Shown piece after piece: positions 5,854 through 40,691 of a stretch of DNA of 64,000 nt. The position numbers and the translations under genes were made by a program. The stretch comes from Gammaproteobacteria bacterium (lineage in GTDB: Bacteria > Pseudomonadota > Gammaproteobacteria > Steroidobacterales > Foliamicaceae), in contig OY762933.1 in the NCBI GenBank assembly GCA_963666765.1, positions 1,854,553 to 1,918,552 on the forward strand, read 5' to 3'. Numbering within the stretch: position 1 is the stretch's first letter; each line of letters starts with the position of its first letter. The notes under the pieces are model-generated. The model saw only the letters and a list, made by a program, of their open reading frames with translations. It was not told the DNA's origin and searched no databases.

Positions 5854-5867
5854 TCGCCCCGCCCGGT

Positions 5868-6467
5868 TCAGCGAACCGGCGGCAACTCCCAATTCGTGAT
5901 CGCGACCTTCATGCTGGCGCCGGGCCCGGAAATATTGAGCCTTCGGGGAACGGCAAGGTCGCCCGAGCGGGCCAGCGCATTCACCTCGATGCGCCAGCCG
6001 TCCTGCCGGAATTCACGTACCGCGCCCTGACCGGAGCTGTATTCGGTGAACGGAGATCCGGGATCCGGCAGCCCGCGCAACCAGTAGGGAAGGCTTTTCA
6101 GCGGCGCGCTTTCGCACAGCATTTCCAGTTCATCGATCTGCATGCCGGGCGCGCACATCGAAACCCAGTCGCCCTCGCTCAACAGGTTGACGTCCCCGTC
6201 CTCGATCCGCACGCGCTCGGCGCCCACTCCCCAGGGCCCGCTCAGTTCGAGCTGGGCCAATGCGCCCTGCTGGCGCCACAACACGTTGGCCTGTGCACCC
6301 CGGCCCTCCCGGTTCAGCGCCACGCGGCCGCGCAGCCCCCAGGATTCAAGCTCCGCCAGCGCGGCCGCGTCCAGGACGGCGGGAGCGCGATTGCCGGCCA
6401 CCGTGCAGCCGGTCAGCAGCAGGACGACCGCAGCAAGAAGGCCGGCAACCGCGGCTGTCCGTCTCAC
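5868..6467 (-). CDS. lolB: Outer-membrane lipoprotein insertion protein LolB
   Basis: 199 aa with lipobox LLLTGC. The size and the conserved position after a TPR lipoprotein gene fit LolB. GTGA overlap with the upstream gene. Confidence 0.7.
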   Translation of the reverse strand: MRRTAAVAGLLAAVVLLLTGCTVAGNRAPAVLDAAALAELESWGLRGRVALNREGRGAQANVLWRQQGALAQLELSGPWGVGAERVRIEDGDVNLLSEGDWVSMCAPGMQIDELEMLCESAPLKSLPYWLRGLPDPGSPFTEYSSGQGAVREFRQDGWRIEVNALARSGDLAVPRRLNISGPGASMKVAITNWELPPVR

Positions 6468-8203
6468 CGCGAATACCTTTCGCGGACGGCCTCCAGAAGA
6501 GTCGTGTCCTCATACTGCGCCAGAGATTCGCGAAGCAGTTCGTCGGCCCGTTCGACCTGTCCCAGTTCATACAGCACTTCGCACAGGTGCGCGGCAACCT
6601 CGGGATGCGGAAAGCTCTCAAGCGCCTGCTCCAGCAGCCCGACCGCCTCCTCCTTCCTGCCCAGGCGGTAAAGGACCCAGCCCATGCTGTCCACGATCGC
6701 GGGCGAGCCGGGTTCCAGTTCCAGCGCCAGGCTGATGTGCCCGTGGGCTTCGTCAAGGCGTATGCCTCGATCCGCCAGCGTATAACCCAGGGCATTGAGC
6801 ACTTCCGAGTCACGCGGGTAGTCGGCCAGCAGGCCTTCCATCGCCCGTATCGCCTTGCGGTCTTGCTTCAGGTCCAGCAGCAAGTGGGCCCGCTGCATCC
6901 TCAGCGGCCGGCTTTGCGGCCGGTAGCGAAGGGCTTCCTCATAGGCTGCCAGCGCCTCGGCATCGCGCTCCGCGGACCGCATAGCGAAGGCGAAAAGCGG
7001 GAGGCTCTCGAACGCGTGCTCGGGATAGCGCCGGACATGTTCCAGGAGGGTAGCCAGAGCTTCGTCGAATTCATCCCGCGCCACGAACGCCCTGACCAGC
7101 AGCTCCGCGACTGCCGGCGCAAGCCGGCTTGACTCTATCCCGGCGAGCCACTCGATCGATTCCAGCCACTCCTCGCGGCCGGCTGTGATCTGCGCCAAGG
7201 CCATGCGGCAGGAATCCGCCTGGTGGCCGCGAGAAAAGAGCTCAAGATATATCGCTTCGGCAAAATTGCCGGCGCCCAGCGCCTGCAGAATCCTGGCCTC
7301 CTGCATTGCCAGATCGGGAGAGTCCGGGTCCGCCGCGCGGAGATTTCGCAGACGGCTCAAGGCCTCCCTGGGCTGGCGCGCTTCCAGCAGCAGCACCACG
7401 TAGTTCTGCTCCAGCGCCAGGCTTTCGCGAATGGCCAGCTGTTCGGTCAGCCGGGCAAGCGCCGCATCCGGTTCGCCGGCGCGCAGGAGCGCGGTGGCCG
7501 CGAGCACATGCGTGTCGTCGTCCCCGGGATTGTGGCGCAACAGGGAGTCGGCCAGACGGGCCGCCTGCGCATTTTCGCCCGCGGCAAGCGCAACCCGGGC
7601 CGCAAGACTCAGAACTTCAGGCGAATCGGGATGCTCGTCGGCGAGTCGGCCGGTCAGCGGCTCCAGGGCTGCCGTGGTCAGCGCGTCGGAATTGATGCCG
7701 TTCAGCCGTTCCTCGAACAATGCGAGAAAACGGGCGTCATTCTGTCCTGCCGAAAAACCTGCCCGCGCCGTATCAAAGGCCGCCTCCATGTCCCCGGCAG
7801 CCGCCTGCAGTGCCGTCAGCAGCGCCAGGGCTTCGACATCGCCCGGCGCGCGGGCGCGCCACACAGACGCCGCTTCCAGGGCCAGCGCGTACAGATCGCG
7901 CCGGAAAGCGAACTCGGCCGCGTCCCTGGCCTTCAGCGCTCCCGCGGCGTCCTCGGTGGAGCGTTGCGCGTCAGCCAGCAGCGCCCGGGCCATCTCGCCC
8001 GGGAAGGCCGGCCAGCCGGCCTCGGCCAGCCGCATCGGCGTGCTCGCGCAGGCCGCCAGGGAGAACCCGGCGAGAACGATGGCGGCCAGCCTGATGCGGA
8101 GACGAAGATCCACACTGCGATAATAGCCCCAGTGCCGGGTCAACAGGCCCCGCGCGGACAAGACCATGAACCCCGCCCTGCTGGAAAAACTCCGCGGCCT
8201 CAA
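6464..8203 (-). CDS. Tetratricopeptide-repeat (TPR) lipoprotein
   Basis: Long Ala/Leu-rich helical-repeat protein with lipobox LAGFSLAAC near the N-terminus. The start is uncertain: a GTG at 8113 would give a normal signal peptide and avoid overlap with prfA. Confidence 0.65.
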
Positions 8204-9251
8204 GGCCCGCTTCGAACAACTTGAGGCCTCGCTGGCCGATCCTGAAGTGCTTTCGGATTCGGTGCGCCGCCGCGACGTGGGCCGCGAGCACGCCCGGCTT
8301 CAGCCTCTGGCCGGCCTGCTGGTCCGCCTGGAGAGGGCGCTGGAAACCGAGGCCGGAGCAGAGGAAATGCTCGCGGGGGACGACCAGGAATTACGCGAGC
8401 TGGCGCAGGAGGAGGCCGAAGAGGCGCGGCGCGAACTCAAGGCCCTGGAAGTCCAGCTTCGCCGCTTCCTGCTCAAGCCCGACCCGCGCGACGCGCGCGA
8501 CGTGTACCTGGAGATCCGCGCAGGCACCGGCGGCGACGAAGCGGCGATCTTCGCCGGCGACCTGTTCCGCATGTACACGCGCTATGCAGAGGCGCGCCGC
8601 TGGACGCTGGAGATCATCCAGATGAGCGAAGGCGAGCACGGAGGCTACAAGGAGATCGTCTGCCGGCTGGCCGGCAAGCGGGTCTTTTCGTACTTGCGGT
8701 TCGAGTCCGGCGCCCATCGGGTGCAGCGCGTCCCGGAGACCGAATCGCAGGGCCGCATCCATACCTCGGCCTGCACCGTGGCGGTCTTGCCGGAAGCCGA
8801 GGAGACGGGAGAAATCGAGATCGATTCCGGGGACCTGCGGGTCGATACTTATCGCGCTTCGGGCGCCGGCGGCCAGCATGTCAACAAGACCGACTCCGCG
8901 GTCCGCCTCACGCACCTGCCCACCGGAATCGTCGTGGAGTGCCAGGACGAGCGCTCGCAGCACAAGAACCGCGCCCGGGCGATGTCGCTGCTGCGCGCCC
9001 GGCTGCTGGACGCCGAGCAGAGCCGCCTTGAGCGCGAGCGCGCCGAAGAGCGCCGTTCGCAGGTAGGCAGCGGCGACCGTTCCGAGCGCATCCGCACCTA
9101 CAACTTTCCGCAGGGCCGGGTCACCGACCACCGCATCAACTTAAGCCTCTACAAGCTTCCGCAGATCATGGAAGGCGACCTTGACGGGATCATCGAGCCG
9201 CTGCGCCAGCACATGGAGGCCGAACAGCTCACCGCGCTGGACACCGCCTGA
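8166..9251 (+). CDS. prfA: Peptide chain release factor 1
   Basis: 361 aa with the GGQ motif ([23 protein letters not shown]) and [18 protein letters not shown] (PxT tripeptide). Confidence 0.95.
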
Positions 9252-9258
9252 CTGCCGG

Positions 9259-10002
9259 CTAGAACTCTTCCAGCAGCCGCCCGAATCCCATGACCTTGTC
9301 GTCGATACCATTGGCCCTGAGCGCGTGCCAATAGGTGGCCGTGTTGATGGCGATCACGGGCTTGCCGAGCCACCGTTCGGCGCCCGCCGCCAGACGGATC
9401 GTGGAAAGATTGGTGCCCACCTGCACCAGTGCGTCGACATCGTCGCCGTCAAGTTCCTGGAATTCCCGGGCGACCCGCGATTCCGGCACTTCCGCGATGG
9501 CGGTCCATGAGGGGCAGCGCAGGCAGGAGTCGCGCACGACGTTGAAACCTCGATCCGACAGGTATCGGCTGACTTCGCGGTTGGCCACCGGATAGTAGGG
9601 CGACATGAACGCCACGTTGCGCGAGCCGTATGCGTCGAGCGCGTCGGCCACCGCCTCGGAACCGACCGACAGCTTGAGTTCGGCGATTTCCTCTATCCTT
9701 CGCTTCCATTCAGTGCCGCCCTTCACGCCGCCGTAGAAGGTCACCGCCGACATGCCCATCACCAGGTAGTCGGGTTTGCAGGTCAGCACGCCCCGAACCG
9801 CGGCGGCCGTATTCTCCGAAATCTCGATGGTGCCCGCCATGAAGGTCTCGTCGGATATCGCGTTGGCGTCCTGTATGACGATGCGCGAGTAATGGTTGGT
9901 GACGCCCGGCGGGCGCAGGTCGTCGAAGTCCGGCTGCACGATGGTGTTTGTGGAGGGCCCCAGCACCCCGAATTTCTTTCGCCATGCCAATGCATCGGTC
10001 AT
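9259..10002 (-). CDS. Asp/Glu/hydantoin racemase superfamily protein (maleate isomerase / arylmalonate decarboxylase-like)
   Basis: About 247 aa. The motifs MGMSAVTFYGG and VQVGTNLST resemble this fold. The ATG at 10002 has a GGAGG eight nt upstream. The gene lies 6 nt downstream of the cyclodeaminase-like gene. Confidence 0.6.
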   Translation of the reverse strand: MTDALAWRKKFGVLGPSTNTIVQPDFDDLRPPGVTNHYSRIVIQDANAISDETFMAGTIEISENTAAAVRGVLTCKPDYLVMGMSAVTFYGGVKGGTEWKRRIEEIAELKLSVGSEAVADALDAYGSRNVAFMSPYYPVANREVSRYLSDRGFNVVRDSCLRCPSWTAIAEVPESRVAREFQELDGDDVDALVQVGTNLSTIRLAAGAERWLGKPVIAINTATYWHALRANGIDDKVMGFGRLLEEF

Positions 10003-10014
10003 CGTCAATTCCTC

Positions 10015-10983
10015 CTAGTCCCAGGTGAGGTCCACGCCGATGTTCCTGCTCTCGGCGTTGCGAAAAGCGGCAATGGCGGCGGCCAGGTCCTGGGCGGCGA
10101 CGCCCAGCGACTTGTAGACGGTGATTTCCGCTTCGTCGCGCCGCCCGGCAACCTTGCCGTCCAGCACTTCGCCGATCTCTCCGGCGATGTGCGATTCGGA
10201 CACGGCGCCTGCCCCGATTGCAGACAGCAATTCACCCGCCTGGTCCATTGCGGAGGCCCGGTAATCCACGAAGAAGCGCGAGCGGGTCACTACGTCAACA
10301 TCGGCTTCCGCCGCGCTGGCGATGGCGGCCCCGACCAGGTTCACGTGACAACCGGACGCCAGCCATTTCCCCTCAAGCACCGGGGTTGCGGCGGACGTGG
10401 TGGTGCAGACGATGTCGGCGCCCTCCACGGCCTCACGCGCGCTGCCGGCAAGGCAGGCGGAAGCGGGCAGCCCCTGCGCCATCCGCCGGGCGTGGGATTC
10501 CGTCCGTCCCCAGATCCGTATTTCGCTGATCGCCCGCACGCAGGTCAGTGCCTGAGCATGGTGCCGAGCCTGGGCGCCGGTGCCGAGTATGGCCAGCGAC
10601 GCGGCATCGGCGCGCGCCAGGACACGCGTGGCCAGCGCGCTGGCCGCGGCCGTCCTGATCGCGGTCAGTTCGCTGCCGTCCAGCAGGGCAAGCGGTATGC
10701 CTTCCTCGCTGTCGAAGATCATTACGGCGCCCACATGGGAACCGTACGGGCTGTCCGCCGAGCGCGGATACTTGGACACGATCTTGACGCCGAATGTACA
10801 CGGTTCGCCCAGGTACCCCGGCATCAGGGTGAACTTTCCGCCGTGCTCCGGGATGTCCATGTATCTGCGCAGCGGCATGATGGTGTCGCCGCGGGATACC
10901 GCGCGCATGGCGGACTCCAGCGCATCAATGCACTCGGCATGCGAGAGCGCTTCGGCGACCGCCTCCCGGTTGAGAATGCGCAT
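10015..10983 (-). CDS. Ornithine cyclodeaminase / mu-crystallin family protein
   Basis: 322 aa. LAILGTGAQARHHAQAL is a Rossmann motif. Overall similarity to the OCD family is judged by eye. Confidence 0.75.
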   Translation of the reverse strand: MRILNREAVAEALSHAECIDALESAMRAVSRGDTIMPLRRYMDIPEHGGKFTLMPGYLGEPCTFGVKIVSKYPRSADSPYGSHVGAVMIFDSEEGIPLALLDGSELTAIRTAAASALATRVLARADAASLAILGTGAQARHHAQALTCVRAISEIRIWGRTESHARRMAQGLPASACLAGSAREAVEGADIVCTTTSAATPVLEGKWLASGCHVNLVGAAIASAAEADVDVVTRSRFFVDYRASAMDQAGELLSAIGAGAVSESHIAGEIGEVLDGKVAGRRDEAEITVYKSLGVAAQDLAAAIAAFRNAESRNIGVDLTWD

Positions 10984-11004
10984 GAATGAGCGGAGAGAAG
11001 CCGC

Positions 11005-11895
11005 TCAGCCGAAGCCGCGCATCTCGATGATGCGCTCGAAGAACGACGGACCGTCATCGTGCTCGGGCGACTGCTCGAATACCGGAGAAAGGGCCCGGGC
11101 GCGCTTGAGATAGCCGGAGTCCAGGTCCTCGAAGGACCGCACCTTTACCGCGTCGAAATGCCATATCACGTGGCCGGGCAGGATGCCCATTTCGTTGTAC
11201 GGCCGGCGGGTGGCCGAAAAGATGTTCCAGCCGCCGGAAGCAGCGGTCGGCTGACGCGGCTCCTCGCCCAGGATTTCGTGCGTCGCGGCGAAAAGGGAAG
11301 CATATTCCAGCGACGGCTGCGGAAGGATGGGAGGAAAGCGCGAGCCTTCCTGCAGGCGCAGGATGCCGTTGTCGTCGGCCCAGTCCAGGTGCAGGGGTTT
11401 CTCGGCGTAGTGGTCGGGAAATACCCGCTTCATGCTGCCGAACCATACCCCCATGGGGGTGTAGTAATGCCCTTCCTTGTGGCGAATGAAACTGGCCGGC
11501 AGCGTAACGGTAGCGCCGTTGAAGGGGCTGGTGTACTGGTCGATGAACTCGCCCGTCTCAAGATCGGTGAAGAAGGAGACCGTGGAGGGATAGCGCACCC
11601 ACACATGTTCTTCCACCTGCTTCCACCACCCGGTTTCGCTGCCCAGAAAACCGTACATGGGGGTGACGGCGTCTTCCTGTACGGCGAAGACCTTGCCGCG
11701 GGTCTTCCACACGCAGGGGTCGCCGCCTTCATTCCCGTAGGCGCGGACCATCGCGCGGCACTGCGCCTGGGGATCGCTCGGCAGTGTCAGTTTCTCGTCA
11801 GCGCCGTCGGCAGTCTCTTGCGCCATCAGCATTCGCGGCACGCCGGCCCCGATTCCCATCACGGCCGCGGCCTGCAGCAAATTCCTCCGATTCAT
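11005..11895 (-). CDS. Tat-signal protein, DUF1838-like family, paralogue A
   Basis: Start is the ATG at 11895 after GGGAGAGGG. The leader is MNRRNLLQAAAVMGIGAG. It carries the family block FFTDLETGEFIDQYTSPFNGATVTLP. Confidence 0.7.
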   Translation of the reverse strand: MNRRNLLQAAAVMGIGAGVPRMLMAQETADGADEKLTLPSDPQAQCRAMVRAYGNEGGDPCVWKTRGKVFAVQEDAVTPMYGFLGSETGWWKQVEEHVWVRYPSTVSFFTDLETGEFIDQYTSPFNGATVTLPASFIRHKEGHYYTPMGVWFGSMKRVFPDHYAEKPLHLDWADDNGILRLQEGSRFPPILPQPSLEYASLFAATHEILGEEPRQPTAASGGWNIFSATRRPYNEMGILPGHVIWHFDAVKVRSFEDLDSGYLKRARALSPVFEQSPEHDDGPSFFERIIEMRGFG

Positions 11896-12062
11896 GAGCC
11901 CTCTCCCAGGAATGTTCCGACAGAAGTGCGTAACGATAACGCACCCGGGAGTATCCGTGTTTTCAAGTCGGCATGCGGGAGACGGCGGTGCATCTGTGGG
12001 AGGACGCACGGGAAGCGTATGATTCCGATTTTCGCCGCAAAGGCCGTACGGCTGAGGACCCC

Positions 12063-13454
12063 ATGAGCGTATTGCCCGCCAAAGAGGCCCGTTTCGAATG
12101 GAATGTCCCCGTGGCCGTGGTGGGCGCAGGCGGATGCGGCCTGTGCGCCGGTCTCGCCGCCCGCCAGGCTGGCGCCGAAGTGCTCATACTCGAGCGCGAC
12201 GCCGCGCCGATCGGCACCACCGGCATGTCCACCGGCCTGATCCCGGGCGCCGGAACCCGGATGCAGCGCGAGAAGGGGATCGAGGACTCGCCGGAGTTGT
12301 TCGCCGGCGACATGCTCGCCAAGGTCAGGCAGCAGACCGATGCGGACGTGGTGCTGGCGCTGGCCCGCGAGTCCGCGCGCACCGTGGAGTGGCTGGCCGA
12401 CGAATGCGGCGTGGCGCTTTCGCTGGTCGACAGCTTCCTGTACTCGGGTCACAGCGTCATGCGTTTGCATGGCAGCCCCAACCGCACCGGCTCCGAACTG
12501 ATGGGCAGCCTGCTGGACGCCTGCACCGACGCTGGCGCCGACCTGTTGACTGACGCGCGCGTCAGCCACCTCTTCGCCGATGCCGAAGGGCGCATAAGCG
12601 GTCTGCGTTGCGAGCGGCCGGACGGCAGCACCGAGGACCTCGGCTGCGGAGCGCTGATCCTGGCCTGCTGCGGTTTCGCCGGCAACCAGGAAATGGTGGC
12701 CGAATATATCCCCGAACTGCGCTACGCGGAGTTCTTCGGTCATCCGGGCAACCAGGGCGAGGCGATACAGTGGGGCCGGGAACTCGGCGCGGCGATTGCC
12801 GACATCCGCTCCTACCAGGGCCACGGCGGTCTCGCGAAGGGTTACGGCGTTCCCATCCTGTGGCCGGTCATCCTGGAAGGCGGGATCCAGGTAAACCTCG
12901 ACGGCCGGCGCTTTTCCGACGAATCGCTGGGCTATTCCGAGCAGGCGATGAATGTCCTGGCGCAGCCTGATCACGTTGCCATCACGGTCTACGACCAGCG
13001 TCTGCACGAACTGATGCATGAGTTCAACGATTACCGCGAAGCGATCACCGCAGGCGCGGTCCGAAAAGCCTCGACCCCGGGAGAACTTGCCGAAATGTTC
13101 GGACTGCCGGCCGATGTCCTCGAGGAGACCCTGGCCGAGACGGCCATCCTGACCCGGGGCGAAGCGGCTGATTCTTTCGGCCGCGATTTCACCGGCAGGC
13201 CGGAACTCGCCGCGCCCTGGTACGGCGTACGCGTCACGGGCGCCCTGTTCCACACGCAGGGAGGACTAAGGGTGGATGCGCGGGCCCGCGTGCTTCGCGA
13301 AGACGGCAGCGCCTTCCCCAACCTGTTCGCCGGCGGCGGCGCGGCGCGCGGCGTTTCGGGCCCGTCGCGCTGGGGCTACATCGCTGGCAACGGCCTGCTC
13401 ACCGCTACCACCTACGGCAGGCTGGCGGGCGAAAGCGCCGCGAACCTGGCCTGA
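12063..13454 (+). CDS. FAD-dependent oxidoreductase (fumarate reductase / 3-ketosteroid dehydrogenase-like flavoprotein)
   Basis: Dinucleotide fold VAVVGAGGCGLCAGLAARQAG, plus C-terminal HTQGGLRVD and FAGGGAARG motifs. The ATG at 12063 follows GAGGA. No signal peptide. Confidence 0.75.
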   Translation: MSVLPAKEARFEWNVPVAVVGAGGCGLCAGLAARQAGAEVLILERDAAPIGTTGMSTGLIPGAGTRMQREKGIEDSPELFAGDMLAKVRQQTDADVVLALARESARTVEWLADECGVALSLVDSFLYSGHSVMRLHGSPNRTGSELMGSLLDACTDAGADLLTDARVSHLFADAEGRISGLRCERPDGSTEDLGCGALILACCGFAGNQEMVAEYIPELRYAEFFGHPGNQGEAIQWGRELGAAIADIRSYQGHGGLAKGYGVPILWPVILEGGIQVNLDGRRFSDESLGYSEQAMNVLAQPDHVAITVYDQRLHELMHEFNDYREAITAGAVRKASTPGELAEMFGLPADVLEETLAETAILTRGEAADSFGRDFTGRPELAAPWYGVRVTGALFHTQGGLRVDARARVLREDGSAFPNLFAGGGAARGVSGPSRWGYIAGNGLLTATTYGRLAGESAANLA

Positions 13455-13505
13455 CCACCGCGCACCGGAGCCCAGGCCGGGCCGTAGCCGGCCACGCTCG
13501 CCGTT

Positions 13506-15704
13506 ATGATTCGCGCCATGAAAAAGAAACGCGCGTGGCTGACCCTGGCCCTGATCGTCCTCGTGGCGCTGCTGGGAACGCTTGGCTGGATGGCCAGCGA
13601 CTATCGCCTCTGGGTCCGGTTTGCCAACTGGCCCCAGGATGCGTCCGACCCGGCCAATGCCCGCAGCTTCTCGCCGCAGGTTCCCATCGGCTATGGCGAC
13701 AGCCCGGCCCCCGATACCGCGCAGGATCCCTTGATTCCGCAGGATGTCCTCGACGGAGCCTGGGACTATGCGCAAAGCCAGCAGTCCTACGCGCTGCTCG
13801 TTTCCGTCAACGGGGAATTGCAGTTCGAACGCTATGACCGCGGGGCGAACTCCAGGACTCCCTACAATTCCCAGTCGCTGCACAAGAGCCTGACCGCGAT
13901 CATGCTGGGCGCCGCCATCTACAACGGCGCGATCGAATCCGAGCACCAGCCGGCCTCGTTCTGGCTGGAGGAGTGGGCGGGCGATCCGCAGCGCTCGGGC
14001 ATCACCCTGGCGAACCTGGCCTACATGGAAGGGGGACTGGAGCGGGGGCGCTTCGCCGTCAGTCCGTTTGCCCCCGGCGCACGGCTGTTCCTGACCGGTC
14101 GCCTGGCCCGTGAAGCCCTGGGCACGCCGATGGCCGCCGAACCGGGAGCCGAGTACATCTGGTCCAATGCCAGCGTGCAGGCGCTTTCCATCGCGATCGA
14201 GAGGGCCGCCGGCCGGCCCTGGGCGGAACTGCTGCGGGACTGGATCTGGGAGCCGATCGGGGCGGGCGAGGCCTGGGTCCAGCTGGACCGTCCAGGCGGC
14301 AATGCGCAATCGTTCTGCTGCCTGATATCCAACGGACGCAACTGGCTGCGCATCGGCGAGTTGCTGGCCGGCGACGGCGTCTGGAAAGGCCGCCGCCTGC
14401 TTCCTGAAGGCTGGGTCGCCCGCATGACGCAAGGCGCGTCCACGAACCCCAATTTCGGCATGCAACTGTGGCGCAACGAACCGTACGCGCCGACCCAGCT
14501 GCGCATGTCAAAGCCGCGCATGGAAGTTCCGCGCGACCCGGCGCTGGGGGCGCCCGACGCCTGGTACATGGAAGGCCACTTCTCGCAGCGCGTCTACGTC
14601 GTGCCGTCGCTCGGGCTGGTGGTCGTGCGCTTCGGCGCAGACCGCCTGGACTGGGACGAAGCCCAAATGATGAACGGGCTGATCGCGGCGCTCAAGCCGG
14701 CGGCCCCCGTGTCACTGAACATTGCCAGGCCGGACCATGATTTCGGCGAACGCGCCGCGCCACGCGCGCCGGACTACACGCTACAGGACAACTGGGCCCG
14801 CTATCCGGACGAAGCGGCGCTGGCGCCCGAACACGCGGCCGGCTTTTACATTCACCCGACGACCTGGCCCGGAAGCGAATGGAACGCCACCGTGCCTGAC
14901 GCCGCGGCACGGCCAGCCGTGGATGCTGTCGTGGCTTCGCAGGCAAGCGTGCTGGATGCCTGCTGTGCGGTGTACGCGCCGCGCTACCGGCAGGCCGCTT
15001 CCGCCGCGGTATTCGACCAGAAGGGCAATCGGGACCCGGCCTACGGGCTGGCTTTCACCGATATCGTGCGGGCCTTCACGCATTTTGCAGAGCAAACCGG
15101 CGACCGCCCCATAGTGCTGCTGGGCCATAGCCAGGGCGCCTTGCACGCCGAACGCCTGCTGAGTGATGTCATCGCCCGGGACGATGCGCTATCAAGCCGC
15201 ATGGCCGTCACCTACATTGCCGGAATACCCGTGCCGCTGGGTTCCTACGGGGACCGGCTCAGGAATTTCCAACCATGCCGCGAGAGCAACGATACGGGTT
15301 GCGTGGCGTCCTGGATCACCTACGGGCCCACCGGGGATGCGCGGGCGATTCAGTTCGCCACCGCCATGCGCATGCCCCAATATCGCCGCGACGATGGCGG
15401 CCTGGACGTGCAGTGCAGCAATCCGCTGAACTGGTCGGCGCCGGGAGAATGGACACCGGCCTCGGCCAATCCCGGCGCCGTGGCGCCCGCGCTGCCGGGG
15501 CAGGGGCGCCGCGCCTCGATCCCGGGCGTCACCGGCGCCTGGTGCGACCAGGGCATATTGCGTCTGGACCGAACCCCGGCCGCGCCGTTCGATGCCTTGC
15601 TGCTGCCGGGGGCGAGCTATCACTACTACGACGTGGCGCTGTTTCACGCCGCGCTGAGTCAGAACGCAGCGCTAAGAGCACAGGCCTGGCGCCAGTCCCA
15701 GTAG
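13506..15704 (+). CDS. Membrane-anchored fusion: beta-lactamase-fold serine hydrolase (N-terminal half) plus DUF3089-like alpha/beta hydrolase (C-terminal half)
   Basis: TM anchor WLTLALIVLVALLGTLGW, and an S-L-H-K (SxxK) motif at 13875-13886. The C-terminal half carries YAPRYRQA and LLGHSQGA, which I remember as DUF3089 hallmarks. Confidence 0.7.
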   Translation: MIRAMKKKRAWLTLALIVLVALLGTLGWMASDYRLWVRFANWPQDASDPANARSFSPQVPIGYGDSPAPDTAQDPLIPQDVLDGAWDYAQSQQSYALLVSVNGELQFERYDRGANSRTPYNSQSLHKSLTAIMLGAAIYNGAIESEHQPASFWLEEWAGDPQRSGITLANLAYMEGGLERGRFAVSPFAPGARLFLTGRLAREALGTPMAAEPGAEYIWSNASVQALSIAIERAAGRPWAELLRDWIWEPIGAGEAWVQLDRPGGNAQSFCCLISNGRNWLRIGELLAGDGVWKGRRLLPEGWVARMTQGASTNPNFGMQLWRNEPYAPTQLRMSKPRMEVPRDPALGAPDAWYMEGHFSQRVYVVPSLGLVVVRFGADRLDWDEAQMMNGLIAALKPAAPVSLNIARPDHDFGERAAPRAPDYTLQDNWARYPDEAALAPEHAAGFYIHPTTWPGSEWNATVPDAAARPAVDAVVASQASVLDACCAVYAPRYRQAASAAVFDQKGNRDPAYGLAFTDIVRAFTHFAEQTGDRPIVLLGHSQGALHAERLLSDVIARDDALSSRMAVTYIAGIPVPLGSYGDRLRNFQPCRESNDTGCVASWITYGPTGDARAIQFATAMRMPQYRRDDGGLDVQCSNPLNWSAPGEWTPASANPGAVAPALPGQGRRASIPGVTGAWCDQGILRLDRTPAAPFDALLLPGASYHYYDVALFHAALSQNAALRAQAWRQSQ

Positions 15705-15705
15705 C

Positions 15706-15832
15706 GGAAATCGCCGCGAGCGCAGACTGCCCTTACCTGGAAACGCCGACAGGCACATCCCTGTGGGCTCGGTGTCGGCATCCCTGCCTCCAACGTTCCA
15801 GGGAAGGGCAGTCTGTGCTCGCGGCGATTTCC
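15706..15832. repeat. 127-bp palindromic element with 35-bp inverted termini (33/35 match)
   Basis: ggaaatcgccgcgagcgcagactgcccttacctgg (15706-15740) pairs with 15798-15832. An inner stem gccgaca/tgtcggc is also present. The element starts 2 nt after the stop of the preceding gene. Confidence 0.85.
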
Positions 15833-15865
15833 ACGGATTGCGGGTCGGCGTTTATACTCCGCTTG

Positions 15866-15890
15866 AATCCGCTTGGGGAGGCGGATTTTT
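15866..15890 (+). terminator. Possible Rho-independent terminator or attenuator upstream of the TonB-dependent receptor
   Basis: The aatccgc/gcggatt stem has an 8-nt loop and is followed by a T run (ttttt). The stem is weak. Confidence 0.35.
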
Positions 15891-15914
15891 CTTGAATTTC
15901 ATCAGGGGACAACC

Positions 15915-18350
15915 ATGACCTTATCGCGTTTCACGCGCCCGGCGATCGCGCTCGGCGCCCTTTGTCTGCTTGCCACCTCGCTGCCCGCGCAGGAAATCGA
16001 GGAGATCGTCGTCACCGCGCGGAAGCGCACCGAGTCTGTGCAGGACATCCCGCTGAGCATCTCGGTGTTTGACGAAGAAGCCATCGCCGCGGCCGGCATC
16101 AGGGACATCGACGACATCGCCCGGCTGACGCCGGGGCTGGTGTTCGACAAGGGCTGGATCCCGCAGGACACGCGACCGCACATCCGCGGATTGCCCACCG
16201 ACCGCGGCCGCGCTCCGGTCGGCATCCTCGTGGACGGCATCGACATCTCATCGGAATCGATGCTGACCTCCGGCGGCGGAATGCTGATGAACCTCAAGGT
16301 CATGGACATCGAGCGAATCGAAGTCGTCAAGGGTCCGCAAAGCGCGCTGTACGGCCGGGTGGCCTTCGGCGGCGCGGTGAATTACGTTTCCAGGGCCCCC
16401 AGCGACGAGCTCGAGGCGGATTTCTCGGCTGACGTTGGCCAATACGGGCAGATGGAAGCGCGCGTTGGGGTGTCCTTTCCCGTATCGGAGACATTCGGCC
16501 TGCGGATCAATGCGGTAACCGCGCAGCACGACGGCTACTATGAGAACGAAGTGTCGGGCGAAGGCATTGGCGGTTCGGACTCCACGGGAGTGTCCGCGTC
16601 CGCGGCATTACAACCGTCCGATACCTTCAGCCTGGATCTGCGCGTGGCGTATTCGTCGGACGAATACGAAATCCGCCCGCAGGCGCAGCAGGCCAGCAAG
16701 ACCGGCCACGCCGATCCTGTGTTGCTGCCGTCGCATGTGGTCGGACTCCTGTCTCCGGGCGCATTCGGGCCGGTTCCCTACCCTGCGAATGTCTTTGCGC
16801 CGCCGGCCGGGGCGATCACTTCGCTGGACACGATTTCCGCCAGCCTGAACCCCTACACCGGTGAGGACTACGAAGGAAGCACCTTCGATTCGCTGCTGGT
16901 GCATGCGCGCGCTGAATGGGACTTCGGCGGGGCAAAGCTGAACGCCTGGCTGGGCGGCACCTCCGCCGAAACCACCCAGAACATGGACGTGGACTACTAC
17001 GGAGAGCCATGGCAACCGGTTTTCCTGCCGTCGCCCGGCGTGAACGAACCCCTGCCCGCGCAATTCCTTTTCGACCTTGAAACGGACATCGACCAGACCA
17101 ACCTCGAACTCAGGCTCGGCGACCTTGAATCGGATGGATTCCGCTGGGCCGTAGGCGGACTGTACTGGAACGAGGAAGTGCGGCAGAAGAACGGAAACCT
17201 GATCGTGCTGATGTTCGTGCCGGTCATTTCCGCAGGCCAGAACGTGGCCGCGCAAAGCCCCATCACGAAGCGCGACGAGGGCCGCGATACCGATCACTGG
17301 TCGGCGTACGGAATCCTCGAATACGACTTCAACGACAGGCTGACCGGCTCGGTGGAAGCCCGCTACTCGGACGAATCCACGGATACCTACTGGACCGTGG
17401 GCGGAAACGGCATGATCGGCGCGGCGTTTGCGGGACCCATCCCGGTCAACATGAACCCGACCGCCCAGCGAGGCTCCGAGGACAGTTTCTTCACGCCCCG
17501 CGTTACGCTGGAATACCAGTATTCCGAGAACATACTCACCTACGCTTCAATCGCCAAGGGCGTCAAGCCCGGCGGCGTTTCCACGATAGCGAGCCCGAAC
17601 CCCGTTACCGCGCGCTTCGCGCCGGAGGAATTGTGGAACTACGAAGCCGGATTCAAGAGCACGCTGGCGGAAGGCCGCGTGACGTTCAACGCCGCGGTGT
17701 TCTTCATGGACTACGAGGGCAAACAGACGGTCAGCCTTGAGCCCAGCGCAACCGCGGCCACCGGCTTCGACCTGGTGGTCGGCAATGCGGGCGCCGCGGA
17801 AATCAGCGGCTTTGAAGTGGAAGGCGCGCTTGCAGTCACAGAAGAATTGCTGATTCGCGGCGGATACACCTGGCTGGACAGCGAGTACACCGACTTTGTG
17901 AGCCTTACCAACAGCGCGCTTACGATCGGGCTGGTAAACGATTGCACGCTGCAGCAGACACCCGCCGGGCTCTACCTCTGTTCGGTGGATCAATCGGGGC
18001 GGGAGATGGAGCGCGTGCCGCAGCATAACTTCAACGTTTCGGCCAGCTACACCCGCGCCGTCGGCAACGGCATGAATTTTCAGGTTGACCTGCTTGCGCA
18101 GTACCAAAGCGAGCGCGGCATCGCGGTCGGACGCCGCAACGTGTTCGACTCGTGGGTCAACGTCGACGCACGCATCGGCCTGCAGGCGGAACGCTGGAGC
18201 CTGTTCGCCTACGTGGACAACGTAACGGATGACGATACGGTGCGCACGGCGCAGTCCTCGGGCGACTTCTTCGCCCTGGGCAACCTTGCGACTGTGATCT
18301 TCGCGCCCGACAAGCGCCAGGCCGGACTGCGCTTCAGCTACTCGATGTAA
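15915..18350 (+). CDS. TonB-dependent outer-membrane receptor (TBDR1)
   Basis: Signal peptide followed by the plug start EIEEIVVTARKRTESVQDIPLSISVF. Also IERIEVVKGPQSALYGR and a long beta-barrel. The ATG at 15915 follows AGGGGA. Confidence 0.9.
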   Translation: MTLSRFTRPAIALGALCLLATSLPAQEIEEIVVTARKRTESVQDIPLSISVFDEEAIAAAGIRDIDDIARLTPGLVFDKGWIPQDTRPHIRGLPTDRGRAPVGILVDGIDISSESMLTSGGGMLMNLKVMDIERIEVVKGPQSALYGRVAFGGAVNYVSRAPSDELEADFSADVGQYGQMEARVGVSFPVSETFGLRINAVTAQHDGYYENEVSGEGIGGSDSTGVSASAALQPSDTFSLDLRVAYSSDEYEIRPQAQQASKTGHADPVLLPSHVVGLLSPGAFGPVPYPANVFAPPAGAITSLDTISASLNPYTGEDYEGSTFDSLLVHARAEWDFGGAKLNAWLGGTSAETTQNMDVDYYGEPWQPVFLPSPGVNEPLPAQFLFDLETDIDQTNLELRLGDLESDGFRWAVGGLYWNEEVRQKNGNLIVLMFVPVISAGQNVAAQSPITKRDEGRDTDHWSAYGILEYDFNDRLTGSVEARYSDESTDTYWTVGGNGMIGAAFAGPIPVNMNPTAQRGSEDSFFTPRVTLEYQYSENILTYASIAKGVKPGGVSTIASPNPVTARFAPEELWNYEAGFKSTLAEGRVTFNAAVFFMDYEGKQTVSLEPSATAATGFDLVVGNAGAAEISGFEVEGALAVTEELLIRGGYTWLDSEYTDFVSLTNSALTIGLVNDCTLQQTPAGLYLCSVDQSGREMERVPQHNFNVSASYTRAVGNGMNFQVDLLAQYQSERGIAVGRRNVFDSWVNVDARIGLQAERWSLFAYVDNVTDDDTVRTAQSSGDFFALGNLATVIFAPDKRQAGLRFSYSM

Positions 18351-18393
18351 TCCCGGGAAAGAGGCGCGCCGCAAACAATCGAAAGGAAGATTC

Positions 18394-19548
18394 CTAGACC
18401 TGCTCCAGCGCCTGAAGGAGGTCGGTGATCAGGTCGGCGGCGTCTTCGATGCCGCAGGAAAGCCGCACCAGGTTGCCCGTGATCCCGGCGGCCCGGCGGG
18501 CCTCGGGCGTCATCGTGGCGTGACTCATCAGCGGCGGAAAGCCTGCCAGGCTTTCGACGCCGCCGAGGCTTTCCGCGATCGTGAACAGTTCCAGGGCATT
18601 GAGCAATCTTTCCGGCGCATTCCCGTCGCCATGAAGGTGCAGCGAGACGATCGCGCCGAAGCCATCCATCTGCTTGCCGGCAAGCGCGTGTTGCGGGTGA
18701 TCCGCAAGACCGGGGTAGTGGACCTGCGCTACCTTCCCGTGCGCCTGCAACTCCTCGGCCACGCGTGAGGCATTGGAGAATTGCCGCCGCACCCGCAGTT
18801 CCATCGTCTTCAGTCCCCGTAGCGCCAGGTACGAATCCAGCGGAGCGAGCACGCCCCCGGTGCGATTGCGAACCTGCATCAGGCGGACGGCCAGATCGCT
18901 GTCGGAGACTGTCAGCGTCCCGCCCAATACATCGGAATGACCGGCAATGTACTTGGTAATCGAGTGCATGGAGATGTCCACGCCCAGGGCCAGGGGCCGG
19001 GTAACCAATGGGGTGGCCAGGGTGCTGTCCACACAGCTCAGGGCGCCGTTTGCCGCGCACAATTCGGAAAGGGCCTTAAGGTCGGTAATGTGCATCAGCG
19101 GGTTGGAAGGCGTTTCCATCCACACCAGCCGGGTGTTCTTGCGCCAGGCTGCCCGCAAGGCTGGCGGGCCCTCGTTCTGATGAACGTAGCTGACCTCGAA
19201 ACGCCCTTCGCCCGCGACCCGCAGCATATTGAAACTTCCGCCGTAGACATTGGCCGGCCCGATGATGTGGTCGCCGGGGGTCAGCAGTTCCAGAACGGCA
19301 GTGCTGGCGGCCATTCCCGATGCGAAGGCAAGCGTCCTCGAACCGCCCTCCAGTTCGGTCAGGGCCCGCTCGAAGGCGTCCCGCGTGGGGTTCGACTCGC
19401 GGGTGTAGATGTGCTCCGGCCGCTCCCGCATTGCCGGGTAGGCAAAGGTGGTGCTTTGATGGATCGCAGGCATGACCCCGCCGGTGGCGGCGTCATGGGT
19501 GTCGCCGGCGTGCACGCAGCGGGTGGAATTGCCTTGCTTTCTGGTCAT
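18394..19548 (-). CDS. PLP-dependent trans-sulfuration enzyme (cystathionine gamma-synthase/lyase family)
   Basis: STRCVHAG near the N-terminus and SITKYIAGHSDVLGG with the PLP lysine. Trimmed to the ATG at 19548. Confidence 0.85.
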   Translation of the reverse strand: MTRKQGNSTRCVHAGDTHDAATGGVMPAIHQSTTFAYPAMRERPEHIYTRESNPTRDAFERALTELEGGSRTLAFASGMAASTAVLELLTPGDHIIGPANVYGGSFNMLRVAGEGRFEVSYVHQNEGPPALRAAWRKNTRLVWMETPSNPLMHITDLKALSELCAANGALSCVDSTLATPLVTRPLALGVDISMHSITKYIAGHSDVLGGTLTVSDSDLAVRLMQVRNRTGGVLAPLDSYLALRGLKTMELRVRRQFSNASRVAEELQAHGKVAQVHYPGLADHPQHALAGKQMDGFGAIVSLHLHGDGNAPERLLNALELFTIAESLGGVESLAGFPPLMSHATMTPEARRAAGITGNLVRLSCGIEDAADLITDLLQALEQV

Positions 19549-19634
19549 GGTGCTGAATCCTGAAGGCGCATTATGGCGGGAAGCGCCGAGAACACAATAC
19601 TCGCGCCGTGGCGCGTGTCGGGGAAAATAGGGCG

Positions 19635-20480
19635 ATGGCGACCGCGCGAAGTCCGGAGTCTCTGTTGCGGGAGGGAACAAGGCGGCTTGCGCGCGTCAGT
19701 GAGACTGCGCGGCTGGATTGCGAGTTGCTGCTGGCCCTTGCGCTGGGCCTGGATCGGGCCGCGCTTTACGGGCGCACGGCGGAAGAATTGGCGTCCGGGG
19801 CGGTGGAGCGTTTCGAAACGCTGCTGGCCGAACGGATGGGCGGGAGGCCGATGGCGCAGATCATCGGGCGCAGGGAGTTCCATTCGCTGGAATTCGAGAT
19901 TACCGACGAGGTGCTCGTGCCGCGGCCGGAGACCGAATTGCTGGTGGAGATCGTTCGCGAGGACGTGCGTGCGAAGGGCGGAAATCCGCGGATACTGGAC
20001 CTGGGGACCGGTTCCGGCGCGGTGGCTGTCGCGCTGGCGCGGATCCTGCCCGAATCGCAGGTCGTGGCCTCCGACATTTCCCACGCTGCGCTCGCCGTTG
20101 CCCGGCGCAACGCCGCCGGGATGGCGCCGGGCCGGGTGCGATTCGTTCAGGGCTCCTGGTACGGTCCGCTGGACGGCCGCCGCTTCGACGCCATCGCCTG
20201 CAATCCACCGTACGTGGAGTCCGCACTCTGCGGCGAACAGCCCCTGTGCTTCGAGCCGCGCCAGGCACTGGACGGCGGCCCGGACGGCCTCCGGCAACTG
20301 CGCCTGGCGATTGCCGGGGCGCCGGCGCACCTGAACCGCGGCGGAATGCTGGCGGTGGAGCATGGCGCAGAGCAGGGCGCTCCGGTCCGCTCACTGATGC
20401 GCAGCGCCGGACTCAAGGCGGCGATTACCCACCGCGACCTGGCCGGCCATGAACGGGTAACGGCGGCCCGCATGCCGTAA
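19635..20480 (+). CDS. prmC: Release-factor glutamine N5-methyltransferase PrmC (HemK)
   Basis: ILDLGTGSGAVAV (SAM motif) and IACNPPYV (NPPY). The start could be the ATG at 19635 or the GTG at 19608. Confidence 0.85.
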   Translation: MATARSPESLLREGTRRLARVSETARLDCELLLALALGLDRAALYGRTAEELASGAVERFETLLAERMGGRPMAQIIGRREFHSLEFEITDEVLVPRPETELLVEIVREDVRAKGGNPRILDLGTGSGAVAVALARILPESQVVASDISHAALAVARRNAAGMAPGRVRFVQGSWYGPLDGRRFDAIACNPPYVESALCGEQPLCFEPRQALDGGPDGLRQLRLAIAGAPAHLNRGGMLAVEHGAEQGAPVRSLMRSAGLKAAITHRDLAGHERVTAARMP

Positions 20481-20502
20481 GGGCGGGAGGCCCGTCCCGC
20501 CC
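20481..20502. terminator. GC hairpin between convergent prmC and metH
   Basis: An 8-bp gggcggga/tcccgccc stem lies directly after the prmC TAA. It contains the recurring core cgtcccgccc. Confidence 0.45.
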
Positions 20503-20514
20503 TCGCTCCCGGAG

Positions 20515-24200
<3,686 letters not shown>

Positions 24201-29451: not shown

Positions 29452-30327
29452 ATGGTCAACAGACGCACTTTCGTTACCGCCGCGGCCGGCGCGACCGGCT
29501 CATTGCTGGGGGCGCGGGCGCTTGAGGCCGCCGCACCCAAATCGGTCAGCCCGCCGGTAAGCCGGGTCGTCTCCGAGTTCCTCCATTTCGACGACCCGGT
29601 GGAGGAGTTTCGCGCGCAGATGCGCATGGAGCGCGACCTGGTCGAGGACCAGGGCACGACGCTGACCTGGTACCACTGGCTCGTATTCGTCATACCCGGG
29701 GGACGGCGCCCGGAACCCCTGATCCGCTACGAAGGAATCGAGTTCAGCTACTTCCGGCATCTCGGCGACCACAACTACCGCATCCATGCGCACAATGTTT
29801 CCTTCCCGCGCGACCTCAAGACCAACGCGTTCACGGATTCCGTGACCAATCCCATAACGGGCGAGCTTGTCGAGGTGCCCGTGACGCCGCTGCTAACCGA
29901 TCCGGGAACGATCGGGAGTCCCACCGGCTTTCGCAACCTGTCCGGCGACGGCTTTGTCCAGGCGCCCTACCGCAAGTTCCGGATCGAGAACGACCTGATC
30001 AAGATGGACCTGGTGCGCAGCGCCCCGCCCGACTGGCCTGCAACGCACATCGAGAATTCCTGCAACTGGGTGGAATTCGACCTGTTCGCGAACGAAACCA
30101 TCACTTCGTTACCCGCCCATTTCTGCGGACACTACGCATTCGAAAATCCCGCGTGGCTGAAGATGCCGGAAGGCATGGGCCACCTGGCGGGATTCTGGGA
30201 CGGCAAGAAAGTCAATTCCGCGTCCGAACTGCCGCGCGAGTTTCTCGACCGCATGGAGCGCGAATATCCGGAACTGCTCGAGCCACGCTGGGGCGAATTC
30301 GAGCGCCCGATCCCGTTTGATCTCTAG
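29452..30327 (+). CDS. Tat-signal protein, DUF1838-like family, paralogue B
   Basis: Leader MVNRRTFVTAAAGATGSLLGARA and family block FPRDLKTNAFTDSVTNPITGELVEVP. AAGGGAGAA lies upstream of the ATG. Confidence 0.7.
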   Translation: MVNRRTFVTAAAGATGSLLGARALEAAAPKSVSPPVSRVVSEFLHFDDPVEEFRAQMRMERDLVEDQGTTLTWYHWLVFVIPGGRRPEPLIRYEGIEFSYFRHLGDHNYRIHAHNVSFPRDLKTNAFTDSVTNPITGELVEVPVTPLLTDPGTIGSPTGFRNLSGDGFVQAPYRKFRIENDLIKMDLVRSAPPDWPATHIENSCNWVEFDLFANETITSLPAHFCGHYAFENPAWLKMPEGMGHLAGFWDGKKVNSASELPREFLDRMEREYPELLEPRWGEFERPIPFDL

Positions 30328-36167: not shown

Positions 36168-36319
36168 ACAACCCTCTCTAAGAACAGCAGCCACCTGTCC
36201 GAAGCTAACGGAACCTGCACGGCGACGCAAATCCGCATACACAGCGCGCATAGCGGCATGCCTGGGCGTGATCGCGAACCGGGAGCGCCGGCACCCTTCG
36301 CTCGCTGGCAGCTGCCGGG

Positions 36320-40623: not shown

Positions 40624-40691
40624 GGTGTCCCCTCCCAACTAGTCTTGATGATGCTTGTTCAGCGGCCAATGCCGCGGACCAAGCCTCACTA

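Follow-up and report, generated by a model that had tools for sequence, protein, structure and literature searches.

TonB-dependent utilization loci are known as the polysaccharide utilization loci (PULs) of Bacteroidota and the CUT loci of Xanthomonas and Caulobacter. The locus described here occupies positions 9259 to 18350 of a 64,000-nt stretch of a gammaproteobacterial genome (contig OY762933.1, assembly GCA_963666765.1, forward strand), the whole of which is referred to below as the window. As in PULs and CUT loci, a TonB-dependent receptor (TBDR) is accompanied by periplasmic hydrolases and cytoplasmic catabolic enzymes, and several paralogous loci lie side by side. Unlike them, it has no SusD-like partner and no glycoside hydrolases, a DUF1838 protein with predicted export by the twin-arginine translocation (Tat) system recurs, and amide/amine/ester chemistry is indicated. 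The best-supported picture is a TonB-dependent utilization locus with two unusual parts: a Tat-targeted DUF1838 protein and a cysteine-less branch of the arylmalonate decarboxylase (AMDase)/maleate isomerase fold.

Proteins that escort leaderless partners through the Tat system as hitch-hikers include the MelC1 caddie of Streptomyces tyrosinase and the gamma subunit of FAD-glucose dehydrogenase. They have in common with DUF1838 proteins that the gene for a small protein with a signal adjoins genes for leaderless enzymes, some of them flavoproteins. However, DUF1838 proteins are larger, have no significant sequence or fold similarity to the known escorts (E = 0.1), and have partners that vary and are in some cases NAD(P)H dependent.

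The eutABCDE genes of S. meliloti and R. pomeroyi, a proposed hydroxyectoine-to-ectoine route, share with the locus an Asp/Glu-racemase-superfamily gene that adjoins a gene of the ornithine cyclodeaminase (OCD) family. EutA and EutC act jointly in the proposed model, in which EutC would reduce a cyclic C=N/C=C intermediate with NADH, and the roles of EutABC are themselves putative (PMC5924519). The locus differs in that uptake would proceed through a TBDR and the Ehu/Ueh transporters are absent.

A conserved block between prfA and prmC

We interpret the locus as a real, vertically inherited catabolic block between prfA and prmC in an uncultured gammaproteobacterial lineage ("Candidatus Foliamicus" and relatives), one branch of a larger conserved "DUF1838 system," in which a substrate would be handled in turn by the receptor TBDR1, a hydrolase, DUF1838 paralogue A (DUF1838-A), and cytoplasmic enzymes. 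We put the probability of this interpretation at about 0.45, slightly short of even. The parts of the system are DUF1838 paralogues with predicted Tat export, TBDRs, periplasmic or anchored serine hydrolases, flavoproteins of the amine, GMC, and FAD_binding_2 types, and a cysteine-less enzyme of the AMDase fold (the "racemase-fold" protein). Gene families were assigned with Pfam, curated equivalog cutoffs were taken from NCBIfam, and structural relatives were sought by PDB search and Foldseek.

Homologues of DUF1838-A were detectable in 87 instances, and a scan of species-representative genomes yielded 67 loci. Seventeen related genomes (one metagenome contig, L001, and 16 species-representative genomes, with "Candidatus Foliamicus" spp. 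and gammaproteobacterial metagenome-assembled genomes [MAGs] among them) encode DUF1838-A at 77 to 94% identity. The order in most of the 17 is prmC, a Cys/Met-PLP gene, TBDR1, a hydrolase fusion, a flavoprotein, the divergent DUF1838-A gene, OCD (where present), the racemase-fold gene, and prfA. The FAD_binding_2 flavoprotein gene is found beside DUF1838-A in 16 of these genomes, the racemase-fold gene in 14, the hydrolase fusion in 13, TBDR1 in 10, and the OCD gene in 9, with none in the remaining 8. Five genomes have the racemase-fold gene following DUF1838-A with no OCD gene between them, the gap being 13 to 36 nt in three. Because the same block recurs between prfA and prmC in related genomes, the gene arrangement exceeds chance. 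Within the clade, it is the flavoprotein and racemase-fold genes whose link to DUF1838-A is conserved; the OCD gene is an optional accessory, dispensable in relatives. At greater distance, seven Rhodospirillaceae/Alphaproteobacteria loci carry two beta-lactamase-fold genes directly upstream of a DUF1838-A-like gene (50 to 57% identity), and five of the seven have a FAD_binding_2 gene and a second DUF1838 gene downstream. At the deeper level, DUF1838 is therefore associated with beta-lactamase-fold hydrolases and FAD_binding_2 flavoproteins.

The racemase-fold gene is also linked, independently, to other DUF1838 subfamilies and in different gene orders. Racemase-fold homologues number >7000, and those at 63 to 77% identity occur in Pseudomonadota from marine, freshwater, and soil habitats; 80 metagenome loci and six contexts from genomes and metagenome assemblies were examined. 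Locus L011 encodes racemase-fold, OCD, and FAD_binding_2 proteins with 75%, 60%, and 57% identity to those of the window. It also has a TBDR, FAD_binding_3, a PrpB-like gene, and a distant DUF1838; all of these genes lie within 17 kb, and their order is different. In L099, a beta-lactamase-fold gene, FAD_binding_3, the racemase-fold gene, a PuuE-like gene, DUF1838, and a TBDR lie on one strand. Two further loci, L159 and L161, were reached via DUF1838-D homologues; their operon consists of FAD_binding_3, a racemase-fold gene (66% identity, with the same cysteine-less motifs), and a DUF1838-B orthologue (71 to 78%), beside orthologues of the DUF1838-D/hydrolase pair (51 to 59% and 54 to 63%, respectively) and of TBDR2/beta-lactamase (59 to 61% and 69 to 73%). 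The paralogue D/hydrolase pair is kept in L159, L160, and L161, and L160 encodes, with DUF1838-D, the hydrolase, and further DUF1838 proteins, an amine oxidase 81% identical to that of the window. The loci of the window, the present one among them, are thus parts of a single conserved gene set that has been reshuffled, as indicated by the recurrence in L011, L099, and L159 to L161. A DUF1838 hidden Markov model was positive in 6 of 47 racemase-fold loci of ≥10 kb (13%); the DUF1838 family comprises 1346 clusters at 50% identity among 1.84 billion. Besides the clade of the window itself (L079), only L011 and L102 have OCD with the racemase-fold gene.

The usual context of the racemase-fold gene (six contexts and most of the informative metagenome loci) has a FAD_binding_3 hydroxylase 20 to 60 nt upstream and a PuuE-like amidohydrolase directly downstream, with a PrpB-like lyase, an isochorismatase-like amidase, an aldehyde dehydrogenase, and MFS or TBDR genes also nearby. 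None of the FAD_binding_3, PrpB-like, PuuE-like, isochorismatase-like, and aldehyde dehydrogenase partners reaches an NCBIfam equivalog cutoff, so the FAD_binding_3/racemase-fold/PuuE-like module is also uncharacterized. It recurs in L005 to L010 and L084 to L104 and may represent an unrecognized N-heterocycle or cyclic-amide pathway.

Organization of the locus

A sequence-only reading of the window had described a minus-strand set of DUF1838-A, OCD-family, and racemase-superfamily genes, separated by 21 and 12 nt and divergent from a plus-strand flavoprotein, hydrolase fusion, and TBDR. All six genes were confirmed at their coordinates by open reading frame (ORF) listing, translation, and Pfam (Table 1), and both gaps proved exact after start refinement: the DUF1838-A stop is at 11005 and the OCD ATG at 10983, and the OCD stop TAG (10015 to 10017), which the AGGAGG of the racemase-fold gene overlaps, is followed by the racemase-fold ATG at 10002. 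The ORF of the latter gene opens at 10008 (249 amino acids [aa]), but the ATG 12 nt past the OCD stop gives a protein of 247 aa; residue numbers below follow the 249-aa ORF. Refined starts for DUF1838-A and the flavoprotein are at 11895 and 12063, respectively. The TBDR1 ORF spans 15873 to 18350, with the actual start at ATG 15915, where the Shine-Dalgarno (SD) sequence, ATG, and N terminus are conserved in relatives.

Leader prediction found none on the OCD-family protein, the racemase-fold protein, or the flavoprotein, and an N-terminal membrane anchor on the hydrolase fusion. It was therefore right that a Tat-type DUF1838 gene is co-oriented, at 21- and 12-nt spacing, with genes for two leaderless enzymes. 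The intergenic region between DUF1838-A and the flavoprotein presumably holds the promoters of both divergent units. An Rfam scan of positions 8000 to 21000 (E of 0.1 or better), this region included, returned no match, and there is therefore no riboswitch ahead of TBDR1.

The locus is flanked by prfA (8166 to 9251) and, along with the Cys/Met-PLP gene, prmC (19608 to 20480). The prfA and prmC genes normally adjoin. Here, they are separated by approximately 10.3 kb (this locus and the Cys/Met-PLP gene), and the same split occurs in at least seven related genomes; the GC content of the insert is that of its flanks. Contig L001 (DUF1838-A identity of 84%) differs at 8003 to 8468 and 13052 to 14089: an RHH/ParE toxin-antitoxin pair lies between the hydrolase and flavoprotein genes, and an IS110 transposase separates the racemase-fold gene from prfA. 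In place of TBDR1, which it lacks, is a 2154-aa protein with a faint TPR match. At 4285 to 5892 of the window, next to lolB, a PIF1-like helicase carries a fused WYL domain; this gene is found in the same place in L001.

TABLE 1 Features of the locus and of the other DUF1838 loci in the window
Feature	Positions	Strand	Evidence or remark
AMDase/maleate isomerase-fold (racemase-fold) protein, 247 aa	9259-10002	-	Pfam Amdase, 6e-18; no leader
OCD/mu-crystallin-family protein, 322 aa	10015-10983	-	Pfam OCD_Mu_crystall, 2e-72; no leader
DUF1838 paralogue A (DUF1838-A), 296 aa	11005-11895	-	Pfam DUF1838, 3e-8; twin-arginine leader MNRRNLLQAAAVMGIGAG
Divergent intergenic region (DUF1838-A/flavoprotein), 167 bp	11896-12062		Sequence reading
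FAD_binding_2 flavoprotein, 463 aa	12063-13454	+	Pfam, 4e-47; leaderless
Two-domain serine hydrolase (Beta-lactamase + DUF3089), 732 aa	13506-15704	+	Pfam; N-terminal membrane anchor
Near-perfect palindrome, ~130 nt	15704-15835		Predicted fold; comparison with relatives
Short hairpin ATCCGC-TTGGGGA-GGCGGAT + T-run	15866-15895	+	Kept in five relatives; part of predicted fold
TBDR1, Sec signal peptide	15915-18350	+	Plug + TonB barrel; start from conservation
GMC oxidoreductase	27744-29384	+	Pfam, leaders; leaderless; precedes paralogue B
DUF1838 paralogue B	29452-30327	+	Pfam, leaders; twin-arginine (RR) leader
TBDR2	33834-36251	-	Pfam, leaders; first in transcription order
Beta-lactamase-fold hydrolase	32637-33812	-	Pfam, leaders; follows TBDR2
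DUF1838 paralogue C	31689-32627	-	Pfam, leaders; follows hydrolase
TBDR3	38221-40638	-	First in transcription order
DUF1838 paralogue D	37246-38061	-	Follows TBDR3
Alpha/beta hydrolase	36320-37249	-	Sec signal; follows paralogue D
Tat-type flavin amine oxidase	43880 to about 45442 (start uncertain)	-	First in transcription order
DUF1838 paralogue E	42908-43753	-	Downstream of amine oxidase
Alpha/beta hydrolase	41893-42903	-	Downstream of paralogue E
Tat-type CN-hydrolase	40720-41889	-	Last of amine oxidase set
DUF1838 paralogue F (lipobox LPGC)	about 45460-46455	+	Divergent from amine oxidase

DUF1838-A and the DUF1838 family

DUF1838-A belongs to PF08894 (34 bits versus a cutoff of 25), and the other five paralogues of the window score 24.7 to 127.7 bits. 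Arg3 and Arg4 of its leader (MNRRNLLQAAAVMGIGAG) are invariant in two homologue alignments. By motif reading, all six paralogues carry such RR leaders, and an RR motif occurs in 129 of 140 diverse DUF1838 representatives (~92%), so that the family is predicted to be Tat exported and almost universally Tat targeted. A lipobox-like motif occurs in 8 of the 140 members; paralogue F combines the RR motif with the lipobox LPGC, which makes it a possible lipoprotein exported by Tat.

Conservation across the paralogues is limited to Pro, Gly, Asp, and Thr positions, with no conserved polar or family-wide catalytic residue found. The AlphaFold2 model of DUF1838-A (pLDDT of 88.7) is mostly beta, with ~13 strands. 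Foldseek returned no match to it at an E value of 1e-3 or better, the best TM-scores (0.24 to 0.28) being those to vitellogenin, a Riemerella haemophore, LolA-like proteins, and DUF1329, and PDB searches by sequence and by profile gave no significant chain. Literature searches found DUF1838 in two papers only, in both of them in gene tables and with no function assigned. DUF1838 proteins are most likely periplasmic binding or escort proteins with paralogue-specific ligands, judging from their leaders and their conservation pattern.

Racemase-fold protein

The racemase-fold protein belongs to the Amdase family PF17645 (65.7 bits versus a gathering score of 25.9) and shares the two-domain fold of maleate cis-trans isomerase (MaiA/NicE; 2xec and 4fq5) and AMDase (3dg9), with which it aligns over its whole length. 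It had been read as an Asp/Glu-racemase-superfamily enzyme whose catalytic cysteines were to be sought in an alignment, and both are missing. Met86 lies opposite Cys76, and Gly198 lies opposite Cys194, in the alignment to the Nocardia maleate isomerase (2xec/2xed), and the alignment to AMDase (3ixl) agrees at the second site, where Cys188 is opposite Gly198. Column conservation in 121 sequences shows Met86 and Gly198 to be invariant in the clade. The surrounding motifs M84-G-M-S-A88 and Q196-V-G-T-N-L201 show little or no variation in these homologues, and the same holds for C162 and C165 of a C-L-R-C motif elsewhere in the sequence. Both catalytic cysteines being replaced, the two-thiol racemase/maleate isomerase mechanism and the Cys188 mechanism of AMDase are therefore impossible. 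C162-x-x-C165 might serve the cysteine-less clade as a substitute catalytic or redox pair. Among structures, the loss of both cysteines is common only to the uncharacterized PDB entry 4ix1.

Identity as a maleate cis-trans isomerase or Asp/Glu racemase was rejected on the loss of these cysteines, and identity as an arylmalonate decarboxylase on the substitution of Gly198 for Cys188 and a score of 57 bits against the cutoff of 225 of model NF052327. Assignment to nicotinate/pyridine-ring catabolism (NicC/NicF/NicE-like) was rejected as well, as the protein in the NicE position lacks both cysteines. The database names "maleate isomerase" and "arylmalonate decarboxylase" given to its homologues are unsafe. 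The top NCBIfam match is EutA (TIGR02990), at 73.2 bits versus a cutoff of 318. Literature searches on PF17645 and on "Foliamicus" found nothing, and those on clusters of maleate isomerase, cyclic imide, and monooxygenase genes returned canonical pyridine pathways only.

OCD-family protein

Membership of the OCD/mu-crystallin superfamily is clear (PF02423, 244 bits versus 24, residues 3 to 312), but the label "cyclodeaminase" given to this protein by the sequence-only reading did not hold. Its best NCBIfam model is the bifunctional Pyr2C/Pip2C reductase (NF004793, PRK06141), at 266 bits versus a cutoff of 322, and its best solved relative is pyrroline-2-carboxylate reductase (6t3e, 1e-55), followed by ketimine reductase/mu-crystallin. 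Identity as a true ornithine cyclodeaminase was rejected, with a score of 135 bits versus 350 (PRK07589) and a match of only 2e-23 to Pseudomonas putida OCD (1u7h, one of the reference structures 1u7h/1x7d). EutC (TIGR02992) is also among the matches, at 194.1 bits versus a cutoff of 471.65. The matches to pyrroline-2-carboxylate/ketimine reductases (6t3e, 4bv8, and 2i99) extend over the full length, although the score remains under the equivalog cutoff and proline/hydroxyproline pathway genes are not nearby. The protein is best described as cyclic-imine reductase-like, its profile and structural matches placing it nearest the NAD(P)H-dependent pyrroline-2-carboxylate/ketimine reductases. An exact-sequence look-up returned no record.

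Plus-strand genes and intervening elements

The flavoprotein is closest to the flavin domain of Shewanella flavocytochrome c3 (Fcc3; 1d4c, 1e-56) and to urocanate reductase UrdA (6t85, 4e-48), with homologous FAD_binding_2 flavin and clamp domains, but scores 243 bits against the cutoff of 285 of TIGR01813 (flavocytochrome c fumarate reductase). His365 and Arg545 are retained, whereas the catalytic Arg402 is replaced by Tyr, His504 by Phe, and Thr377 by Leu; unlike these relatives, the protein has no heme or FMN domain and no signal peptide. Fumarate or urocanate reductase activity was rejected on the basis of the three substitutions.

The first domain of the hydrolase fusion (PF00144, 64.6 bits) contains S-x-x-K as SLHK and is class C beta-lactamase related; its nearest PDB entries are 8rlj (1e-17, class C beta-lactamase related) and NylB (6-aminohexanoate-dimer hydrolase). 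A GHSQG motif was read in the DUF3089 domain. TBDR1 has the Plug (PF07715) and barrel (PF00593) domains and a signal peptide.

The palindrome between the two genes abuts the hydrolase stop codon, and the region from 15700 to 15915 folds at -123.5 kcal/mol (z = -8.6). Its arms are unique within the window. It is present in the window, in L015 (with the inner part inverted), and in L018, but not in the closest relatives, L012 and L013, and looks like a mobile MITE/REP-like insertion outside the pathway. Upstream of TBDR1 (15840 to 15915), a TATACT box, the short hairpin with its T-run, and the SD/ATG are kept in five relatives; the hairpin may be a terminator or attenuator between the hydrolase operon and TBDR1.

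Proposed pathway and alternatives

In the proposed mechanism, the gene content is observed and the steps are inferred. TBDR1 would import across the outer membrane an ester- or amide-linked, probably nitrogen-containing organic nutrient, which the anchored beta-lactamase/DUF3089 hydrolase would cleave in the periplasm. DUF1838-A would act as a noncatalytic ligand-binding or escort protein that handles the substrate or product in the periplasm, and the pathway would finish in the cytoplasm with the FAD_binding_2 flavoprotein, the cysteine-less racemase-fold enzyme, and, where present, the OCD-family cyclic-imine reductase. The substrate class is suggested to be one of amide/amine/imine (C-N) chemistry because the partners include NylB-like hydrolases, a CN-hydrolase, an amine oxidase, an imine reductase, and PuuE-like and isochorismatase-like amidohydrolases.

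Several findings weigh against this catabolic block. A promoter/terminator scan of positions 8900 to 19800 gave nothing above shuffled controls and no sigma-70 consensus above chance, and for that reason the probable co-transcription of the minus-strand trio is deduced from spacing and conservation only. Approximately 50 more distant DUF1838-A loci (43 to 59% identity, mostly Rhodospirillaceae) never contain the OCD or racemase-fold gene, and many have unrelated neighbors (TPR, ABC-F, and SDR genes). Most racemase-fold homologues at 63 to 76% identity have no DUF1838 gene nearby, and their usual FAD_binding_3, PuuE-like, and PrpB-like partners are not in the window. On the conditions that the sequence-only reading had named for its own refutation, the outcome was mixed. 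The adjacency to paralogue A stands within one clade (racemase-fold, 14/17; OCD, 9/17) and fails in the distant loci. As for orthology to a known pathway encoded elsewhere, the racemase-fold gene is orthologous to that of a different, conserved but uncharacterized module. The racemase-fold and OCD genes might accordingly belong to a cytoplasmic pathway with FAD_binding_3, PuuE-like, and PrpB-like enzymes encoded elsewhere and have simply landed downstream of DUF1838-A: the racemase-fold orthologue mostly lies between FAD_binding_3 and the PuuE-like gene, and OCD is missing in 8 of 17 relatives. Such a juxtaposition is unlikely, given that the racemase-fold gene stands behind DUF1838-A in 14 of 17 genomes, in some at 13 to 36 nt, that it shares an operon with DUF1838-B in L159 and L161 and clusters with DUF1838 in L011 and L099, and that the 13% co-occurrence within 9 kb far exceeds expectation for a family so small. 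The role assigned to DUF1838-A is also exposed, as its likeness to open-barrel carriers is vague in the predicted model (TM-score of ≤0.28) and subfamily A has an invariant polar motif, S-x-I-R-H-K-E-G, that may mark a catalytic rather than a binding site. DUF1838 proteins could then be periplasmic enzymes (e.g., a beta-barrel isomerase, hydratase, or cyclase) with one substrate per paralogue, the DUF1838-A step preceding the cytoplasmic enzymes. Invariance of R138, H139, K140, E141, W90, W91, W245, D248, and K251 in subfamily A would suit this, family-wide Tat export fits folding, and possibly cofactor binding, before export, and several paralogues per locus recall enzyme-family diversification. 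It is nevertheless doubtful, as no polar residue is common to the paralogues, no enzyme fold or family was matched by PDB, profile, or Foldseek searches, and hydrolase and oxidase activities are already supplied by neighbors.

DUF1838 might instead escort leaderless partners (the racemase-fold protein and FAD_binding_2/GMC flavoproteins) into the periplasm as Tat hitch-hikers, making the pathway periplasmic. The family-wide RR leaders without shared catalytic residues fit this, as does the repeated adjacency of DUF1838 genes to those of leaderless enzymes, namely FAD_binding_2 proteins, the GMC oxidoreductase ahead of DUF1838-B, and, in two types of operon, the racemase-fold protein. Shewanella Fcc3 and UrdA, the nearest characterized relatives of the flavoprotein, are periplasmic enzymes. 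The top PDB profile match of DUF1838, the Tat caddie MelC1, points the same way but is not significant (E = 0.1) and covers the signal peptide. On the other side, the periplasm lacks the NAD(P)H that the OCD-family and FAD_binding_3 partners require, genomes differ in the partners and in their order, and other partner enzymes bear their own Sec or Tat signals, so that export by hitch-hiking appears very unlikely. The stronger claim built on it, that DUF1838 proteins are caddies for neighboring leaderless enzymes and form with them a previously unrecognized periplasmic catabolic machinery coupled to TonB-dependent import, is decidedly unlikely; in a milder version, DUF1838 proteins may form a new class of proteins that hand over ligands in the periplasm, and the proteobacterial TonB-dependent utilization loci defined by them would be of a new type. 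Finally, the sequence-only reading had likened the racemase-fold and OCD-family pair to EutA/EutC of (hydroxy)ectoine or cyclic amino acid catabolism and had noted that the rest of such a pathway was absent. Only the second point was upheld: EutB-, EutD-, and EutE-type families were not among the 36 window genes scanned with Pfam, the window containing a PALP gene (50076 to 51140) 40 kb from the locus. Although EutA is the top NCBIfam match of one protein and EutC is among those of the other, both scores fall far under their cutoffs (73 versus 318 and 194 versus 472 bits), and OCD is gone from 8 of the 17 relatives. The locus is not one of ectoine or hydroxyectoine catabolism, and catabolism by such a pair is extremely improbable.

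Other DUF1838 loci in the window

The locus had been described as the second of its type, and the window does contain six DUF1838 paralogues with RR leaders (A to F) in several loci, beside two further TBDRs and several hydrolases and oxidases (Table 1). The CN-hydrolase and the flavin amine oxidase have RR-type leaders and are predicted to be periplasmic, which is unusual for these families. The long amine oxidase ORF runs over the start of paralogue F. An AAA_14/DUF4143 ATPase gene (30355 to 31614) between paralogues B and C may belong to a mobile element or be otherwise unrelated.

Significance

The locus is a solid comparative genomics lead rather than a mechanistic surprise. Solving its substrate would give a function to two "dark" families, DUF1838 and the cysteine-less AMDase-fold branch, and would also mend the widespread database annotation of the latter. 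There may be a bearing on the use of organic nitrogen by host-associated marine bacteria, given the MAG names of the closest relatives, which look sponge derived.

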